From IMG/VR virus record IMGVR_UViG_3300020431_000008, positions 13,603 through 77,602 of that record: 64,000 nt of DNA; one strand, 5' to 3'. Origin of the DNA: a virus. Taxonomy: Duplodnaviria > Caudoviricetes. Below are positions 3,964-61,975 of the stretch, in pieces (position 1 is the first letter of the stretch; each line of letters starts with the position of its first letter). The notes below the pieces were generated by a model, which saw nothing but the letters and a program-made list of their open reading frames with translations, made no database searches and had not been told where the DNA came from. A program made the position numbers and the translations under genes.

Positions 3964-5427
3964 CTATTCTTTTATGTTAATTGATATAATGTCATAGTTG
4001 AATTGCTCCTGGACATATATTTTCACTCTTTCTATAAAGTGATTTAATGTGTAGTTTTTCCTTGATCCTAGAGTTAGATCATCAGCAATATCATATAGTT
4101 TTGCTTTCACTTTGTTTTTGCCTTTTCTTAGGACTCTACCAATAGACTGTAGATTACGAATTCTAGACTTTGATGGAGAGGCAAATATTACATTGTGAAG
4201 ATTCTTGATATTGATTCCTGTACTGAATGTTCCATATGATGCAACAATAATTGCATCATTTTCTTGTTCTGTAATTTCTCTTACTTTTTCTCTATCTTCA
4301 GCACATACACCACCATGAATAAAGAAGACCTTTCTACCTTCCTTAACTTTTTTATTTAGCATTTCAAAAAGAATAGCACCATGTGATTCAACTCTACTGA
4401 ATAGAATTAGACTATTGCCACTCAAATCATCAGCAAGATTTACTATGAATTTGCTTCTATTTTCATTGCCAATTATGAATTGAATTTCATCTTCATAAGT
4501 ATCAAACTTCTTTGGTTTATACTTTAAAACTAAACACTGAATATCTAGTGTAGCAAGATGTCCTTCATCAATAAGTTTCTTAGTATGAGTGACTTTATAC
4601 GAAGGACCAAAGAGACCCTCTAACACCCACTTATGGGTCTGTGTGCCATCTAAAGTTCCTGTGAACCCATATCTATACTTGGCATGGTGTAACTTATCCA
4701 TGATTCCAATGAGAGACTTACTTTTAAAAAGATGAGCTTCATCTCCAATTATGACATCGTAATCTTCAAAAAATGATCTATCCAATTGATATACAGATTG
4801 CCAAGTTGTAATAGTAACTTCACTAGTATTAATTCTCTCTCTACCAGCATAGATCCTATGACAGTGATTCTCAGCATCCCACCCATAGTCCTGGAAGTCC
4901 TTGAACATCTGCTCTACAAGAGATGTAGTGGGTACTACTAAGAGTATCTTTTTACTAGAATTTACAAAATATCTCACAATAGTGTAAATCATAAATGACT
5001 TACCAGATGCTGTAGGAGATATAAGAAGTTTCCTATTATATCTTAGAGCATCATTTACAGCTTCAATTTGATAATCTCTTGGTTTGAGGTGAGTAATAGA
5101 ACTCATAAAGTCCTTTACTCCCTCTTCTGAGATCATATCATTGACTTCAAATGGGAGACCATAAAACTTATTTGGTTCAAATTTATATGAATAACCTGCG
5201 TTCTCGCAAAATGCTACAACCTTATCTAGAAGACCAACATAGATCCTCTTAGTCTTCATATTGAATAAGTGAACATATCCATCCCAGTATTTGCTTCTAT
5301 ACTGAGGCATGAATTTCTTATTAGGAACCTCAAATGTGAATCTATCTCTCAGTTCATGCTCTACATGAGGTTCAGTTGTAATCTTCAGGTAAACTTCATT
5401 TACCTTCTCTATCACCAGATCAGACAT
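3964..5427 (-). CDS. uvsW: SF2 RNA-DNA/DNA-DNA helicase UvsW
   Basis: Walker A SPTASGKS, DEAH box, GRVLR motif VI; next to uvsY. Confidence 0.96.
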   Translation of the reverse strand: MSDLVIEKVNEVYLKITTEPHVEHELRDRFTFEVPNKKFMPQYRSKYWDGYVHLFNMKTKRIYVGLLDKVVAFCENAGYSYKFEPNKFYGLPFEVNDMISEEGVKDFMSSITHLKPRDYQIEAVNDALRYNRKLLISPTASGKSFMIYTIVRYFVNSSKKILLVVPTTSLVEQMFKDFQDYGWDAENHCHRIYAGRERINTSEVTITTWQSVYQLDRSFFEDYDVIIGDEAHLFKSKSLIGIMDKLHHAKYRYGFTGTLDGTQTHKWVLEGLFGPSYKVTHTKKLIDEGHLATLDIQCLVLKYKPKKFDTYEDEIQFIIGNENRSKFIVNLADDLSGNSLILFSRVESHGAILFEMLNKKVKEGRKVFFIHGGVCAEDREKVREITEQENDAIIVASYGTFSTGINIKNLHNVIFASPSKSRIRNLQSIGRVLRKGKNKVKAKLYDIADDLTLGSRKNYTLNHFIERVKIYVQEQFNYDIISINIKE

Positions 5428-36933: not shown

Positions 36934-38487
36934 TTAGAACTGCAAGATAATCTTTACGTCTTCTTTCTGGGATGACGACCTTGTGACTGATGGTCTGTTG
37001 TCTACATATACAATATTTCCAGAATATTTTTTAGATTCTGGTTGAGCAACACCTTTAGTAAAGTCCTGACCCAGGTTATATGTTCTATTATTTATTACAG
37101 TTGTCAAACCTGTAAATCCAGTATCTATGCCCAAAATTGAACTTCCTCCACTAATGTCTAAACTTCCGTTTATACTTGGTGTTGCAGTAAATTCTAATAC
37201 TTCAAATCCATATGTTGGAGAAGAGTCTGCTTGCCCATTAAAAGAAAAACCTGAGTTTGTTCTATCTTGCCAATATTTTAGAACACCAGTAGTTTGATCA
37301 TAAGAAACAACTCTACCAACAGCAGTAGATGCAAGACCTACTGTTTGGGTTATGAGTGCATCACTAGTGAAAGCTGCTGAACTATAACCAGTCCCAGTCA
37401 ATCTTAGGGCATATACAGCACTTGCTTTATCAGTGTTGAGAATACTTGAAGAATTGTATGCTAAAGGATTTTCAACTAAACCTACTCTTGCAAACTGATT
37501 TCCTGTAATAAAATCAGGATTTTCAGTATCATTTTCAAATCTAGCATAAGTTAGAACATTATAAGCACCAAGTTCATTATAAACATCAGCACCATGACCT
37601 CCACTAGGTGGGATAATTACATTAAAGACAGGTATTGTGGAACCAGTAGGAACACCACCAGCAGCCAGGTCAATTGTGCCAAATGTGTAACCAGATCCAC
37701 CCTTTGAAACAGTTACTGATTCAATTTTAGCATCAGCATTAATTACAACAGTTGCTTCTGCTTCTGCTCCATCACCTGTAATAGGAACTTGTGTGTAAGT
37801 TCTAGAAGTGCCAAGTCCTGCGCCACGATTTCTAATAGTCACAATCTTTAGCTGACCACTTGTTGAGGCATTCTGTCTCACAGCAGTATTATCAATGCCA
37901 CTATCCCAATCATTGGGTACAGGAATATAGTTTGTAGAGTCAAACTTAATTGCCTGACTTGGTTTGATAGTATAAAGATATTTCCAAATATATGAATCAC
38001 CACTTGAACCAGCAGCTCTTGGTTCTAGGTCAGTAAATGTTGGCTCATCAAGAGATGGACCACCTTGAAAGTTATTTTCTGGAGTTGCATTATTATAGAG
38101 ACAAACATATACTCTATAGTCACTGTTCATTACATAGTAATTTGCAGAATAGATATCAAAAGAACCAGATGGTTGCGAAGAATTGCTTCTTGAAATATCA
38201 TTCCTCCACATATCATATGTAATACCAGACTGCCAGTTGATCTTTCTTACAACCTGACTAATATCACTTGCATTGATTTTTTTCAATGCAATCATAGTAT
38301 CCCAATAATCATTAGATTGATCTAGATTATCTTTAGGAGATGGTGGATTTATGTCCCAATCTGATTGATAATCAGAGGCATTAGGAAGACCAAGAAATGC
38401 ATAATAAGAATTTGTGCTGGACTGAACACCAGCGATAAAATTCTTGGCATTCAAGATTCTCAGTTGATCAGTAATTATCGCTGCCAT
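36934..38487 (-). CDS. gp8: Baseplate wedge subunit
   Basis: MAAIITDQLRILNA, YIWKYLYTI, YVDNRPSVTRSSSQKEDVKIILQF. Confidence 0.92.
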   Translation of the reverse strand: MAAIITDQLRILNAKNFIAGVQSSTNSYYAFLGLPNASDYQSDWDINPPSPKDNLDQSNDYWDTMIALKKINASDISQVVRKINWQSGITYDMWRNDISRSNSSQPSGSFDIYSANYYVMNSDYRVYVCLYNNATPENNFQGGPSLDEPTFTDLEPRAAGSSGDSYIWKYLYTIKPSQAIKFDSTNYIPVPNDWDSGIDNTAVRQNASTSGQLKIVTIRNRGAGLGTSRTYTQVPITGDGAEAEATVVINADAKIESVTVSKGGSGYTFGTIDLAAGGVPTGSTIPVFNVIIPPSGGHGADVYNELGAYNVLTYARFENDTENPDFITGNQFARVGLVENPLAYNSSSILNTDKASAVYALRLTGTGYSSAAFTSDALITQTVGLASTAVGRVVSYDQTTGVLKYWQDRTNSGFSFNGQADSSPTYGFEVLEFTATPSINGSLDISGGSSILGIDTGFTGLTTVINNRTYNLGQDFTKGVAQPESKKYSGNIVYVDNRPSVTRSSSQKEDVKIILQF

Positions 38488-53896: not shown

Positions 53897-55957
53897 TTAA
53901 TAGGAGTATGTTGTGGATTGTGAAGAACCAGCATTCCCAGTTGTAACAGTTACTCTAGTTGTAGTATTTGGTACGTCTGTGTCAGCAGGTGCTGTGACTG
54001 TTTGTGTAGTTGTAAGAACAGGTGTTCCTCTAACAATACTTCCATTGGAGTAACTAGATGTAACAATATAGTTACTTCCTGAAACATCATCACCAGATGC
54101 AATTTGATCTGATACTGTATTGACTACAACATTTCTTGTATCAAGTTGAAGATACAAATCTTGTAGTCCTATAACATCATTTGAATATGGAACAGCAGAT
54201 ACTTCAATGAGGGGTGTACCTCTATTTACGCTAGTAGAAATGATCTTAATTGGGTTCAATTTAATCTCACCCTTCACATAATCAATAATACCAATATTCT
54301 GTTTAACAACAACTGGTTCAGAAGGTGAATTCAACTTGAACAAGAATATACTACCAGTCTTCAAACCAGGATTGGGTTTATCTCCTAGATATACATCACC
54401 AGAAATACCACTTACTTTGAAAGCAGATGTCTTGATGTTATATCCAACAACAGTTCCATTGGAAACTGGAGAGTGTCCATGATTCTTGATATAGAATCTA
54501 TTTCCAAAACACAACTCGTATTCAGCAAATGTATTCAAAAGAGGTTCCATATCTCTTCTCATCTGAACAGTAGTAATGTTAGATGTAATTGAAACCTGTG
54601 TATCATCAATAATCTTCTGATACTTACTAAACTTAAACCTAGCACCAAACTTATTCAACTCTGTAGAGTTGGCATATGCATCAATATTATTAGTCACAAG
54701 CGAACCAACTACACTAGCAGATGGTGCTTTGTTCTCATTATAATAAACATAAGAATCAGTCTCAATATACAGATACTTGAGATCAACAATCTCACTTACA
54801 ATACCTGCTACTGAATACTTTCTCAGTTCTCTGGAAATATCTTCCTTAATAGTACTAGAAAGATAAACACCATTCTCAGGTTTGACACTGATGAATACCT
54901 TACCATATTGTGGAGGACTAAGTTCTTCACCACCAAATGCTGAAACAGACTCTGCTTCTGAGTAAATTCTTGGTATTAATACTTCATAATCTGCTGCAGT
55001 TACAGCACGATTTTGTGATGCATAGATTAGTGGAGCATTCTTTTTAATTGATTCAACAGTTTCAATATCAGAACCACCAAAAGATTTCTGATCTGTTGTG
55101 ATTAATGAAATACCATTTGTAATTGGTGTATTGTTATTATCTGCTAACTGAGCAGCAAAAGTAAATTCTGAGATATTATTGCCAGATTCACCACTTGATG
55201 TGATATATCCAATCTCTACAATATTAGGTTCTTCTAATTTTGTGCCAAATATTCCATCACCAAAAAGTAATTCATATCTCTCATTATCAACCTCTTGAAT
55301 AAAATAGACAGGAGAAGTAGAATTTACTTCATACAGACTACTGAACTGTTTATAGACTCTTGTAATAGTAGATCCAGATCCTTCTCTTACTAATACTGTG
55401 ATTAAATCAGTATCAATGCCACTATTGGTAAGGAGGTATTTTTGATTGGGCGTTCTAGAACTTACATTGAATGATTGAGTAATATGTGTTCCTTCATAAA
55501 TCTCAATATCATTAAAGATGGCAAGTCCTTCACTGTTTACTGCAACTGTAATATCATCAGGGATAGAAAATACATAACTCTTATTTGAAAAACTATTGGA
55601 AGAAAGTGCTACAATGCCTCTCTTAAGAGTTACAGATACTGCTGTAGTTGATGATGTATCTACTGAAAAAGATATTAATGCCTTTGCTGCATTCCTCGAC
55701 TTAGGAACATATCCTATATTTCTTGCTAAAGAAACAACATTCTCTCTGAGTGTTGCTCCATCAATAAACACCTCATTGGTTACCATATTGGCATTGTATG
55801 AGGTGATGTAAGTATTATAGGCAAGTGTGTCTATAATAGTAGAAAGATTGGATCCTTCATAATCATAATCTGTGAAGTTTGAATTCGCACGAAGATAGTC
55901 CTTGATGGACGTCTTTATTTGATCAAAATCTAAATTGCTGAAATTAACTAACGGCAT
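53897..55957 (-). CDS. gp6: Baseplate wedge subunit
   Basis: LDFDQIKTSIKDYL, FTDYDYEGSNLS, LRENVVSLARNIGYVP, QNRAVTAADY, YGKVFISVKP. Confidence 0.95.
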   Translation of the reverse strand: MPLVNFSNLDFDQIKTSIKDYLRANSNFTDYDYEGSNLSTIIDTLAYNTYITSYNANMVTNEVFIDGATLRENVVSLARNIGYVPKSRNAAKALISFSVDTSSTTAVSVTLKRGIVALSSNSFSNKSYVFSIPDDITVAVNSEGLAIFNDIEIYEGTHITQSFNVSSRTPNQKYLLTNSGIDTDLITVLVREGSGSTITRVYKQFSSLYEVNSTSPVYFIQEVDNERYELLFGDGIFGTKLEEPNIVEIGYITSSGESGNNISEFTFAAQLADNNNTPITNGISLITTDQKSFGGSDIETVESIKKNAPLIYASQNRAVTAADYEVLIPRIYSEAESVSAFGGEELSPPQYGKVFISVKPENGVYLSSTIKEDISRELRKYSVAGIVSEIVDLKYLYIETDSYVYYNENKAPSASVVGSLVTNNIDAYANSTELNKFGARFKFSKYQKIIDDTQVSITSNITTVQMRRDMEPLLNTFAEYELCFGNRFYIKNHGHSPVSNGTVVGYNIKTSAFKVSGISGDVYLGDKPNPGLKTGSIFLFKLNSPSEPVVVKQNIGIIDYVKGEIKLNPIKIISTSVNRGTPLIEVSAVPYSNDVIGLQDLYLQLDTRNVVVNTVSDQIASGDDVSGSNYIVTSSYSNGSIVRGTPVLTTTQTVTAPADTDVPNTTTRVTVTTGNAGSSQSTTYSY

Positions 55958-58401: not shown

Positions 58402-58428
58402 AAAAAAAAAGAGATCAATATAGATCTC
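58402..58428 (-). terminator. Rho-independent terminator closing the early region
   Basis: Minus-strand RNA GAGAUC-UAUAUU-GAUCUC followed by U9. Confidence 0.7.
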
Positions 58429-58570
58429 AGAGGAATATACTTTTGTAGGTTGCCCTAGACCGGTCTTTTTCGTAGGGGGGGGGGTCCTTTCAATACCTTT
58501 AAGGTTTTACTAAGCCCACATAAGAACTTAACATAACCCCCTTAATCACTGTCGTATTCACAACACTGTC

Positions 58571-58600
58571 AGTATAACACATATGCCCCCTATGTGTCAA
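58571..58600 (-). promoter_or_regulatory. sigma70-like promoter TTGACA-N18-TATACT with extended -10 TG
   Basis: tgtcaa 58595-58600, agtata 58571-58576; internal inverted repeat acacata/tatgtgt. Confidence 0.7.
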
Positions 58601-58643: not shown

Positions 58644-58808
58644 TCAACAAGCAATGAGGGACTGTTGTACATTTTCACGTAACTCTAAGTAATCATTAAT
58701 ATCATCACAAGTTTCATAGTGCTCCTGCAACATTTCAAACTCTTCAATGTCAATTACTTTGAGATCAATGAGGTTATATAGTGCCAGTGTAAATTGTTCA
58801 GAATGCAT
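58644..58808 (-). CDS. 54-aa acidic early hypothetical protein
   Basis: Hand-translated MHSEQFTLALYNLIDLKVIDIEEFEMLQEHYETCDDINDYLELRENVQQSLIAC; directly after repeat copy 1. Confidence 0.7.
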   Translation of the reverse strand: MHSEQFTLALYNLIDLKVIDIEEFEMLQEHYETCDDINDYLELRENVQQSLIAC

Positions 58809-58819
58809 GGACGGATTAT

Positions 58820-58860
58820 GTGGTTACACTATAGCAGACCTTTAGAGGTTACTAACGTTA
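58820..58860 (-). repeat. Early promoter-like repeat, copy 1 (most divergent)
   Basis: Minus strand TAACGTTAGTAACCTCTAAAGGTCTGCTATAGTGTAACCAC. Confidence 0.85.
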
Positions 58861-58984
58861 ACTCTCTGTGAGTTACTGATGATGATGCCTATGCAACTGT
58901 TGCAGAAGGTGTCAGATACTGTCCCCCTGTGTTTATAAGATAGTGTGTCCCCTGTGTGTTACATAGTGTCCTCTCAGTCTTTAT

Positions 58985-59013
58985 ATTATAGAGCATAAGA
59001 CTGTCCCTGTCAA
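58985..59013 (-). promoter_or_regulatory. Perfect sigma70 promoter TTGACA-N17-TATAAT
   Basis: tgtcaa 59008-59013, attata 58985-58990. Confidence 0.85.
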
Positions 59014-59051
59014 GTAAAACCCTGGGTGGTCAGAAATATATGTGGTCCCCC

Positions 59052-59080
59052 TTGACTTTTGAGAGTTTGTGTGATATAGT
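59052..59080 (+). promoter_or_regulatory. Divergent plus-strand sigma70 promoter TTGACT-N17-TATAGT
   Basis: TTGACT 59052-59057, TATAGT 59075-59080; no plus-strand ORF downstream. Confidence 0.7.
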
Positions 59081-59142
59081 GCAGTCTTAGATCGCTATAA
59101 GTATGAGGGTTTCTGAGAGATAAGAGGGTTCTTAAGTATACC

Positions 59143-59264
59143 TTTTCCACAGATTATCAGACAATAACCACACAAAAGACCCCTTTTTCCACAGGGTTGT
59201 TGAAAACTAACAAAACACTCATATACATTTATTAATACCTTTTTAATTGATTTAAGATAAAAAA
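59143..59264. other. DnaA-box-like cluster plus AT-rich tract (candidate replication origin)
   Basis: TTTTCCACA at 59143-59151 and 59185-59193; inverted TTTTCAACA at 59198-59206; 59221-59264 has 5 G/C in 44 nt. Confidence 0.5.
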
Positions 59265-59269
59265 CATGC

Positions 59270-59276
59270 TATTTAT
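59270..59276 (-). promoter_or_regulatory. Possible late promoter (ATAAATA) pointing into the non-coding island
   Basis: tatttat on plus strand; could be chance in AT-rich DNA. Confidence 0.35.
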
Positions 59277-59284
59277 GGGTGTTT

Positions 59285-59491
59285 TCAGGGGGTAATCTGG
59301 GAGATAGTATCATTTAAGGTAATATGAGTAGTAGTTACTCTATCCCCCAATTCTTCTTTAGTTGGTATAGATGAATGAGGTCTATAAGCATAAAGAATAG
59401 ATGCTAGTTGATACATCAAATGTGTATCTAACTGTGCATCTCTTAAGTGATAGATTGGGTGTGAAGGTAATGAATACATTAGGTGTTCCAT
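59285..59491 (-). CDS. Early hypothetical protein (true start probably 59479, MYSLPSH...)
   Basis: ORF track; TAATG overlap with the upstream stop favours the internal ATG. Confidence 0.55.
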   Translation of the reverse strand: MEHLMYSLPSHPIYHLRDAQLDTHLMYQLASILYAYRPHSSIPTKEELGDRVTTTHITLNDTISQITP

Positions 59492-60797: not shown

Positions 60798-60810
60798 GGT
60801 TGGTTTTGTA

Positions 60811-60852
60811 GTGGTTACACTATAGATGACATTTGAAGGTTACTAACTTTAA
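60811..60852 (-). repeat. Early promoter-like repeat, copy 3
   Basis: Minus strand TTAAAGTTAGTAACCTTCAAATGTCATCTATAGTGTAACCAC. Confidence 0.9.
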
Positions 60853-60904
60853 TTAAAATATATTTGCTTAGATCAATGTTACACTAATTCCTGCTGTTGT
60901 AACA

Positions 60905-61165
60905 TTAGTTGGCAGATGTTAATGTAATTCGGTTAATCTCATCTTCAATACATTCTGCAATCTGTTCAAAAATATAATCACCTTCATGAACTTCGGTTAA
61001 TACTTTTCCAGTAATCTCTTCAGAATAATATACTTCGTCACCATCATCATTCATCGTCAATACATCATTAGCAGAGAAAATCCAATATGCTACAGGTGCA
61101 TTTTCTCCCTGTTCTTTGATCATACTATTAACACGGTCTTGAAGTTGCTTGAGAGTGTAGTTCAT
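60905..61165 (-). CDS. Acidic early hypothetical protein
   Basis: 86-aa ORF. Confidence 0.75.
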   Translation of the reverse strand: MNYTLKQLQDRVNSMIKEQGENAPVAYWIFSANDVLTMNDDGDEVYYSEEITGKVLTEVHEGDYIFEQIAECIEDEINRITLTSAN

Positions 61166-61196
61166 AATTTGTTCCTAATTTGGGTGAGATTGGGAG

Positions 61197-61391
61197 TTAG
61201 TTAGTAAATGTAATCTCATATTCATTTTCCTCTGTAATTAACCTGATACCATTATCACCAAAAGATGAGTAATCTAATAATGGTGCAATAACATCAGTCT
61301 CTAGATTATGAAGATAAACATACTCTTCATCACCATATGTGATACAGATACTATTCAATGAATCACAGATTTCAACAGTTTTGATGAACAT
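61197..61391 (-). CDS. Acidic early hypothetical protein
   Basis: 64-aa ORF. Confidence 0.65.
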   Translation of the reverse strand: MFIKTVEICDSLNSICITYGDEEYVYLHNLETDVIAPLLDYSSFGDNGIRLITEENEYEITFTN

Positions 61392-61428
61392 AATAAAAAA
61401 AGAAAAGTGTGTGGATTAATGTAAAAGA

Positions 61429-61638
61429 TTAAGCAGTTGCTGATTCATAGATTTCATAAAACATATCCCATGCTTTAGTATCATGAACAAAAGAATTAAT
61501 TCCTATCTGATCAGAAACCCAATCATATGCAAAATCAATATCTGCACCTGTTTCTAATACAAAGGATTGTAACCCTTGTAATGTGTCAATGAATTTTGGA
61601 TCTGTGTGAATCATATTGTTGTTTGATGTAGTGCTCAT
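61429..61638 (-). CDS. Early hypothetical protein (true start probably 61614, MIHTDPKF...)
   Basis: ATG at 61638 abuts the -10 of repeat copy 4 and would lie upstream of the predicted start site. Confidence 0.7.
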   Translation of the reverse strand: MSTTSNNNMIHTDPKFIDTLQGLQSFVLETGADIDFAYDWVSDQIGINSFVHDTKAWDMFYEIYESATA

Positions 61639-61672
61639 ACTATAGGGGACATTTGGAGGTTACTAACTTTAA
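61631..61672 (-). repeat. Early promoter-like repeat, copy 4
   Basis: Minus strand TTAAAGTTAGTAACCTCCAAATGTCCCCTATAGTATGAGCAC. Confidence 0.85.
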
Positions 61673-61677
61673 TCATA

Positions 61678-61857
61678 TTAATCTTTATCACTTATGTTCC
61701 ATCTAGTGATAGGTACTAACTTAATCTCACCAGAACGTAATTTGTTCCTATATTCTTCTTCCTTCTGCAATTGTAAAATATAATTCTTTAATGCTGCTTG
61801 AATAATTGGATCATTCTTTGCAGTTTCATTTTGTAAAAAGCAATCCTTTTTAATCAT
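61678..61857 (-). CDS. 59-aa early hypothetical protein
   Basis: Hand-translated MIKKDCFLQNETAKNDPIIQAALKELYLQLQKEEEYRNKLRSGEIKLVPITRWNISDKD; A/C-rich leader. Confidence 0.7.
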   Translation of the reverse strand: MIKKDCFLQNETAKNDPIIQAALKNYILQLQKEEEYRNKLRSGEIKLVPITRWNISDKD

Positions 61858-61975
61858 GGTTTTGTGGTGTAAAATGTTGTTTTGTGTGGTGTGGTGTGTA
61901 AAGATTTCTCTCCAACAATGGGTCTTATATGTAACATAGTAACCACCACAATCATTTAGTTACAATGCCCATCTA

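Follow-up and report, generated by a model that had tools for sequence, protein, structure and literature searches.

A conserved single-copy DNA module with host-type DnaA boxes is a candidate replication origin of a T4-like cyanophage

The 64,000-nucleotide stretch of DNA analysed here (hereafter the window), taken from IMG/VR record IMGVR_UViG_3300020431_000008, forms the final 64 kb of a viral contig of 77.6 kb with a completeness of about 40%. Its terminase and tail sheath DNA is 74-79% identical to that of T4-like cyanomyoviruses, and one protein encoded beside the locus described below is a member of the Kyanoviridae Gp96 family. T4-like cyanophages are among the most abundant viruses of the ocean and, to our knowledge, their replication origins have not been mapped; most origins of T4 itself are poorly understood. 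As had been predicted, all credible genes of the window lie on the minus strand where, read 5' to 3', a run of small early genes (64 to 59.3 kb) is followed by a gene-free locus at 58985-59280, a few small genes and the baseplate wedge operon, with gp6 (53897..55957), a 4034-amino-acid (aa) protein of gp7 size and gp8 (36934..38487). Sequence comparison identifies the segment 58985-59280 as the phage's single copy of a conserved cis-acting DNA module of Kyanoviridae, which we consider a candidate replication origin of the promoter-plus-unwinding-element (R-loop) kind at which the host initiator DnaA may have a part.

The original prediction had described at this locus divergent promoters, two DnaA boxes with an inverted copy, an AT-rich tract and a late promoter, and each of these is present where it was placed. 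Its feature list was nevertheless incomplete, for it missed a degenerate box (slot -48, counted from the core described below), a tandem repeat (59102-59137), a conserved 20-mer core and a conserved transcript start. The minus-strand member of the promoter pair is a sigma70-type early promoter, TTGACA-17-TATAAT (58985..59013, 12/12 consensus positions), which starts the next minus-strand transcription unit. All of its 29 nucleotides are identical in the related loci L004 and L007 which, together with L084, are the close relatives of the stretch (about 83-85% identity); L005 and L008 are more distant (L008 about 72% identical overall). The plus-strand member is antisense to the genes, a sigma70-type, TG-extended promoter, TTGACT-17-TATAGT (59052..59080, 10/12), that transcribes into the module and is 27-29/29 identical in L004 and L007. 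It serves no open reading frame (ORF), in agreement with the original prediction, the downstream plus-strand frame being only 6 codons long. Matches of 10/12 occur 27 times on the plus strand of the window against 24 +/- 4.7 times in shuffled sequences, a chance level, so we rejected the promoter score as stand-alone evidence. No MotA box was found at this promoter, whose -35 element (TTGACT/TTGACA) is of the host sigma70 type.

The initial transcribed region (GCAGTCTTAGATCGCTATAAG, 59081..59101, plus strand) is identical at 20 of 21 positions in L004 and L007, and its family consensus, CTTAGATCAC TATAAG, recurs right after the -10 element. It leads into a contracted, iteron-like tandem repeat (59102..59137) of two degenerate 10-nt units, TATGAGGGTT and TAAGAGGGTT, 19 nt apart. 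The length of this block varies: between the promoter and the first box L004 has 94 and L007 has 35 additional bases, the block of L004 being built of 3.2 copies of a 23-nt unit, and other modules carry different tandem units at the same position (at least three in relatives), 19-34 nt long and variable in copy number. The boxes come next. Perfect copies of TTTTCCACA occupy slots -69 (59143..59151) and -27 (59185..59193, an exact match) on the plus strand; the degenerate box ATAACCACA, with two mismatches, lies between them in slot -48 (59164..59172, plus strand), 21 nt from each; and an imperfect inverted box with one mismatch, TTTTCAACA, lies in slot -14 (59198..59206, minus strand), 4 nt after the second perfect box. 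These two perfect and two degenerate boxes span 64 nt and end 6 nt before the 20-mer core (AAAACACTCATATACATTTA, 59212..59231), the signature of the module, which is 20/20 identical in L004 and L007. Adjoining them is an easily melted AT-rich tract and candidate unwinding element (59221..59264) with 5 G/C in 44 nt, the fifth least stable 44-mer of the 64 kb and one of three sites with at most 5 G/C. A T4-type late promoter, CATAAATA (59270..59277, minus strand), converges on this tract. The word NATAAATA has 17 minus-strand copies and no plus-strand copy in the window, and the early region has no other than that at 59277; the late-promoter word reads TATAAATA in L005, L007, L008 and others. 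A 43-aa gene (59285..59416, minus strand), the last before the module, forms the right boundary.

The core is the best-conserved block. Searched as an exact match, the core pattern AAAACASTMATATACATTTA (59212-59231 in the window) gave 36 matching stretches in a viral collection, 34 of them with the same architecture, and 15 scattered matches in 596 Gb of bacterial and archaeal genomes, none of them cyanobacterial. A profile of the core region found one copy in the 77.6-kb piece itself and, even with a threshold as lenient as E = 10, only one in either complete genome, S-SM2 or P-TIM68; S-SCSM1 was also matched, and these three are the carriers among cultured Kyanoviridae. Family counts refer throughout to 32 non-redundant modules from several genera. 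Of these, 30 have a promoter TTGACA-17-TAnnnT (10-12/12) directed against the genes, at 57-220 nt before the core, and in every module the core is succeeded by AT-rich DNA; the antisense promoter, the core and the AT tract are therefore the invariant parts. The late-promoter word faces back from a fixed position, +57/58 from the core, in 14 modules; elsewhere, for instance in S-SM2, L087, L093 and L116, a minus-strand terminator hairpin adjoins the AT tract and there is no late promoter there. Divergent minus-strand promoters also stand beside the module in P-TIM68 and S-SM2. Compared with the window, L004 and L007 are identical at 30-32 of 33 positions in the AT tract and at 110-115 of 125 in the flanking leader, and the module is near-identical across relatives whose flanks have diverged. 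The conservation in related cyanophages that the original prediction had proposed as a check is found in relatives for promoter, boxes, core and AT tract, and we have very little doubt that the module is a functional cis-element. Its place is also maintained, 2.5-3 kb upstream of gp25-gp6-gp7-gp8 in P-TIM68 and S-SM2 and about 3 kb upstream of gp6 in the window.

In cyanobacteria TTTTCCACA serves as the species-specific DnaA box, and it is bound by DnaA in vitro (PMC4674748). That the boxes of the module are of this typical kind, as originally proposed, is borne out by a census of the slots: 39 of 48 boxes are TTTTCCACA and six are TTATCCACA, though the pattern TTWTNCACA admits eight sequences. 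The slots themselves are fixed: three on the promoter strand at intervals of 21 nt (-69, -48 and -27) and an inverted one at -14. Slot -69, whose 19 nucleotides are all identical in L004 and L007 and whose box is kept in L008, reads TTTTCCACAG in 11 modules. Slot -48 contains perfect boxes in L099, L108, L122 and L087 and TTATTCACA in L008, while slot -27 holds TTTTCCACA or TTATCCACA in the window's genome and in L004, L007, L109, L111, L085, L087 and L122. In slot -14 a perfect inverted box is found in L096, L086, L092, L089, L103, L099, L108, L094 and L087. Two perfect boxes are present in the window's module and one to six in others.

A count of the boxes and a test for their clustering, both suggested with the original prediction, gave a divided answer. 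There is no enrichment of TTWTNCACA across the window (7 found, 11.5 expected), whereas clustering at one locus is clear, with 53 perfect matches in the 12 kb that modules make up and 47 in 342 kb of flanking DNA, a 32-fold higher density in the modules. The 77.6-kb piece contains only three copies of TTTTCCACA, two of which lie 42 nt apart; the expected number of such pairs is about 0.003. Across four complete genomes of cyanophages (190-229 kb), 10 of the 13 copies of TTTTCCACA lie at or beside the module locus, and the totals per genome (1-5) equal those of a control word (2-5), so that there is no genome-wide excess. Both orientations are found among the boxes, and each arm of the palindrome decays on its own (a C/T mismatch is seen in the window), which points to their being recognised as DNA rather than as an RNA hairpin. 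We think it probable that host DnaA binds them. An additional cluster was seen in S-RIM32 (NC_031235.1, 194 kb), where all five copies of TTTTCCACA fall within 1.07 kb (60807-61880) as three boxes followed by a palindromic pair; the core profile has no match in this interval, which is another layout of the same idea.

Several further observations concern the annotation and assembly of the module and its neighbours. A 68-aa ORF (59285-59491) aligns to a 43-aa ORF of L005 that starts at an internal Met (59416); conservation begins there, and the gene is probably the 43-aa version. Its product matched no family. A 23-aa minus-strand ORF starting from the core (59228..59157) was rejected, its frame stopping after 6-17 codons in relatives with only the core-encoded part conserved. 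In database genomes the hypothetical coding sequences SSM2_085 and SSM2_086 of S-SM2 (NC_015279.1, 57841-58101) and PQC12_gp003 of S-SCSM1 (NC_070962.1, 685-852) overlie the boxes, core and AT tract of the module; all three are probably false gene calls, and the practical consequence is that the module is mis-annotated as small hypothetical ORFs. Many metagenomic contigs (L088, L099, L101, L103, L108, L109, L110, L115 and L120) end a few hundred bases from the core, and variable repeats or cassettes may break assemblies there.

On the minus strand beyond the module, an element of about 45 nt stands right before the ATG of small early genes (58814-58864 in the window); L005, L018, L079, L008 and L015 have several copies each, and there are up to 6-7 per related locus. 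Its appearance is that of a cassette promoter (TTAACG ... TGcTATAGT) followed by a brief leader, and it lacks a Shine-Dalgarno sequence. The 54-aa gene that it precedes in the window (58644..58808) is missing together with this promoter from L004 and L007, where 58860 joins 58650 directly, and is present in L084; the absence of the 58651-58859 segment is a single-gene insertion or deletion adjoining the module. Further on, a strong minus-strand promoter (58600..58571, 11/12) is followed at a distance of about 160 nt by an intrinsic terminator (58428..58411 and a T run) that is the region's only one, with no credible ORF between the two and 90-98% conservation in L004 and L007. The interval 58405-58600 (minus strand) is a possible small RNA unit, with a fold no better than that of shuffled sequences (z = -0.43). 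Words resembling GTCCCC(C)TGTGT are repeated around the divergent promoters (58860-58984 and 59014-59051), and L095 has similar TGTGTCCCA repeats on either side of its promoter. A transfer RNA scan found none. GATC, counted as a Dam/SeqA-like control, was not significantly enriched (4.8 versus 3.8 per kb, p = 0.11).

We propose, at about even odds (a probability near 0.5), that the module is a replication origin of the promoter-plus-unwinding-element kind, modulated by host DnaA. Since it occurs as a single copy at the same place in related viruses, we see no better candidate for the start of their replication, which is unmapped. In the early phase of infection, host RNA polymerase would start at 59052-59080, the sole conserved promoter facing against the genes, and would transcribe about 130 nt through the short repeat block and then through a regulatory slot holding host-type DnaA boxes before entering the core and AT tract (59212-59264). 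There the unstructured RNA would stay paired with the template and prime leading-strand synthesis by the phage replisome, as at T4 oriF, oriG and oriE. DnaA on the boxes would be an accessory that either helps to melt or hold open the AT tract or gates the primer transcript, as at lambda pO/pR, and the converging late promoter (59277..59270) could later silence the origin or reverse its direction. What supports the hybrid origin of the original prediction is the origin-like anatomy, the fixed and phased boxes and an oriE-like place and polarity; the idea of DnaA as an essential opener is made unlikely by the box-free modules discussed below. A G-rich, R-loop-prone non-template strand past the promoter was left unused as evidence: the clade of the window has 15 G to 4 C there, and the skew of the family is 0.13.

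A number of observations weigh against this proposal. None of 10 neighbouring proteins matches a Rep-like or other replication initiator family, and a Rep-like neighbour gene was thus rejected as a component. The tandem array is reduced in the window to two degenerate units, and the Tandem Repeats Finder program (TRF) detects none. The unwinding tract lies about 140 nt from the promoter, unlike that of T4 oriF, which comes directly after it, and a profile of the module has no match in T4 74-83 kb, so that there is no similarity to oriE in sequence. Guanine-cytosine (GC) skew, another check suggested originally, has no inflection at the module and gives no origin signal in the window or in two complete genomes, although none is to be expected when a single strand carries all genes and replication of the T4 type relies mostly on recombination. 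As a control, the box sequence in reverse order was counted too; it is 14-fold enriched in modules, and part of the box excess must therefore reflect local composition. The modules compared share kinship, so their counts are not independent. Finally, we infer activity, transcript, R-loop, priming and DnaA binding alike from the DNA, and no function is proven.

The modules that lack boxes also count against the proposal and bear most directly on the part played by DnaA. Some 12-14 of the 32 (about 40%) have no perfect box and retain promoter, core and AT tract. Their slots hold other repeated words: ATTCTCAA in L093 (core near 1622) and L116 (core near 4968), in direct orientation at -59 and -35 and inverted at -14, TGATA-N8-TATCA in L005, L110 and L115, whose repeat block is otherwise nearly identical to that of the window, and GTCCCACA repeats in L095. 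L104 and L112 are also box-free, with alternative repeated words in the same slots, and repeats of the GTCCCACA type flank the core. By its flanking DNA, L093 is a myovirus of the Synechococcus type, and a different host initiator therefore does not explain why it has no boxes. From these comparisons, the segment of about 75 nt between repeats and core looks like an exchangeable binding-site cassette. Because the boxes are absent from so many modules, DnaA is no general requirement or opener of the module; it looks like an accessory, and we think it unlikely that it is required for firing. A bolder version, in which we place little faith, is that the module is a cyanomyovirus origin with a swappable licensing cassette, where in phages of the present kind host DnaA has to load on the phased TTTTCCACA boxes before the primer transcript can open the AT tract. 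If so, the start of phage DNA synthesis would be tied to the replication and energy status of the host, and related phages would have swapped the cassette for sites of other factors (three ATTCTCAA copies or TGATA-N8-TATCA). It would then be the first origin of a T4-like phage to depend on a host initiator, and would offer a mechanism by which cyanophage replication depends on light or energy.

The same features can be read without any role in replication. The antisense promoter could produce an early regulatory non-coding RNA whose 20-nt core, conserved and unstructured, acts as a seed against host or phage messenger RNA, or whose synthesis dampens minus-strand read-through by collision. We consider this unlikely. 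A promoter that serves no ORF and is strongly conserved together with its first transcribed bases is what such an RNA would need, convergent early and late promoters suggest transcriptional interference, and antisense RNAs are known in cyanomyoviruses, such as cfrI in S-PM2 (cited in PMC5931967). Yet the RNA itself has few of the expected properties: Rfam covariance models gave no match up to E = 1 at 56-62 kb, neither strand folds better than shuffled sequences (z = -0.39 for the plus-strand RNA and +2.0, that is worse, for the minus-strand RNA), which led us to reject a structured RNA on either strand, no terminator was found that would give the plus-strand RNA a defined 3' end, and no complementary site exists elsewhere in the 77.6-kb piece. 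The stretch from promoter to core, moreover, varies in length and in sequence, with repeat blocks and swappable motif cassettes, and phased arrays of boxes in both orientations fit protein-DNA binding. Such binding could equally make the locus a DnaA-controlled transcription switch, in which DnaA 60-120 nt past the antisense promoter blocks or stimulates the transcript or the late promoter, which would make the early-to-late change at the start of the baseplate operon responsive to host state. Two converging promoters do enclose the boxes, DnaA is known as a transcription factor and acts on transcription at lambda pO/pR (PMC3985674), and the slots of box-free modules hold palindromic, operator-like motifs (TGATA-N8-TATCA, three ATTCTCAA). 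A switch is hard to tell from the origin we propose, where DnaA also works through transcription, but it accounts neither for the 20-mer core and the AT tract, which are conserved best, nor for the single copy per genome, and the antisense promoter has no gene to regulate; we rate it as quite unlikely.

Titration of DnaA, the other role put forward in the original prediction, fares worse. Multiplying phage genomes would absorb host DnaA and stop new rounds of host replication, and boxes of the high-affinity host type, clustered at one locus and multiplied with each genome copy, are compatible with such a sink. A datA-type locus is however a high-capacity array of high-affinity boxes, for which two perfect boxes here and one to six elsewhere are a poor fit; many related phages are box-free, the fixed place between promoter and AT tract would be unneeded, and the genome totals of TTTTCCACA do not exceed those of the control word. 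We regard a sink as very improbable. An ordinary intergenic spacer rich in A and T, with promoter-like and box-like words that lack function, could account for a promoter score and a window-wide box count at chance level, and AT-rich tracts are common at 35% GC. It is hardly credible given the comparative data, which already contradict chance: the module is near-identical in relatives with diverged flanks, its architecture recurs in 32 non-redundant modules of several genera, and its boxes are 32-fold enriched and in fixed slots.

The origin modulated by DnaA, which remains our preferred reading, would have consequences beyond this phage. The module is one short, conserved, single-copy origin candidate that is directly testable in cultured phage-host pairs such as those of S-SM2 and P-TIM68. 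To find host DnaA boxes in a phage of the T4 type is unexpected, since the origins of T4 itself work without a host initiator. Should DnaA act at the module, phage replication would be wired to the replication control of the host, and the alternative cassettes would show how this wiring comes to be exchanged. The titles and abstracts of the literature searched report neither DnaA boxes nor a mapped replication origin in T4-like cyanophages, nor did we find a paper on the module among them.

Comparison with known systems places the module nearest to the origins of T4, which consist of a promoter and an unwinding element with R-loop priming, oriE having in addition iterons or direct repeats; the same review makes no mention of DnaA (PMC3016281). 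The T4 record puts oriE at 79355, 1.7 kb upstream of gene 6, with a primer RNA that is the complement of the late gene 5 transcript. Like the module (2.5-3 kb), oriE thus lies just upstream of the gene 6-7-8 baseplate wedge operon; it has direct repeats, as do the modules of relatives (three or more tandem units), and its origin RNA is antisense to the surrounding genes, as the predicted primer RNA of the module would be. By its proximity to gp6 and its antisense orientation, the module therefore matches a proven T4 origin in place and polarity. The two differ in that oriE lies within gene 5 and the module in non-coding DNA, in that oriE has repEA/repEB, no counterpart of which was recognised among 10 proteins near the module, in that oriE is free of DnaA boxes, and in that the iterons of oriE are evenly spaced whereas the repeats of the module are units of 19-34 nt, variable in number and reduced to two degenerate ones in the window. 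With oriF (uvsY) and oriG (gene 34) the module shares a pre-late promoter (predicted from sequence in the module) directed into an easily melted tract, the absence of a dedicated initiator gene and the proposed use of the transcript as primer. Their promoters are however MotA-dependent middle promoters, while that of the module has full sigma70 -35 and -10 elements; in the module about 140 nt, which include a repeat block and a factor-binding slot, separate the promoter from the AT tract downstream, and host DnaA boxes and a converging late promoter are added.

The DnaA boxes have their counterparts in other systems. In lambda, two footprinted DnaA boxes lie downstream of the antisense promoter pO beside the origin, and DnaA affects transcription at pO and pR (PMC3985674). 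The likeness to the module, with two DnaA boxes past a promoter (that of the oop RNA) facing against the neighbouring genes, is a precedent for host DnaA working through transcription and not as an opener. Lambda nevertheless encodes an initiator of its own, O, whose gene contains four iterons, and belongs to another phage family with another replication machinery, whereas no initiator gene adjoins the module. The same holds for iteron/Rep origins at large (lambda, P1, RK2), which combine an array with an adjacent initiator gene, a combination not seen in the window. Cyanobacterial oriC has a cluster of TTTTCCACA beside dnaN (PMC4674748); the module uses the same box, often with the same following G (TTTTCCACAG), and in both several boxes lie close together beside AT-rich DNA. 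The box cluster beside an unwinding element is as expected of an oriC-type origin, but the boxes are not kept in all homologous modules. The module also differs in having two perfect boxes only, a strong promoter running through them, and a core absent from the cyanobacterial genomes searched; derivation from a host oriC was rejected on this last ground, namely the lack of a cyanobacterial match to the 20-mer in 596 Gb, host oriC sequences not having been compared directly. Set beside these systems, the combination of a T4-type promoter-plus-unwinding-element origin with sites for the host initiator appears to be new.

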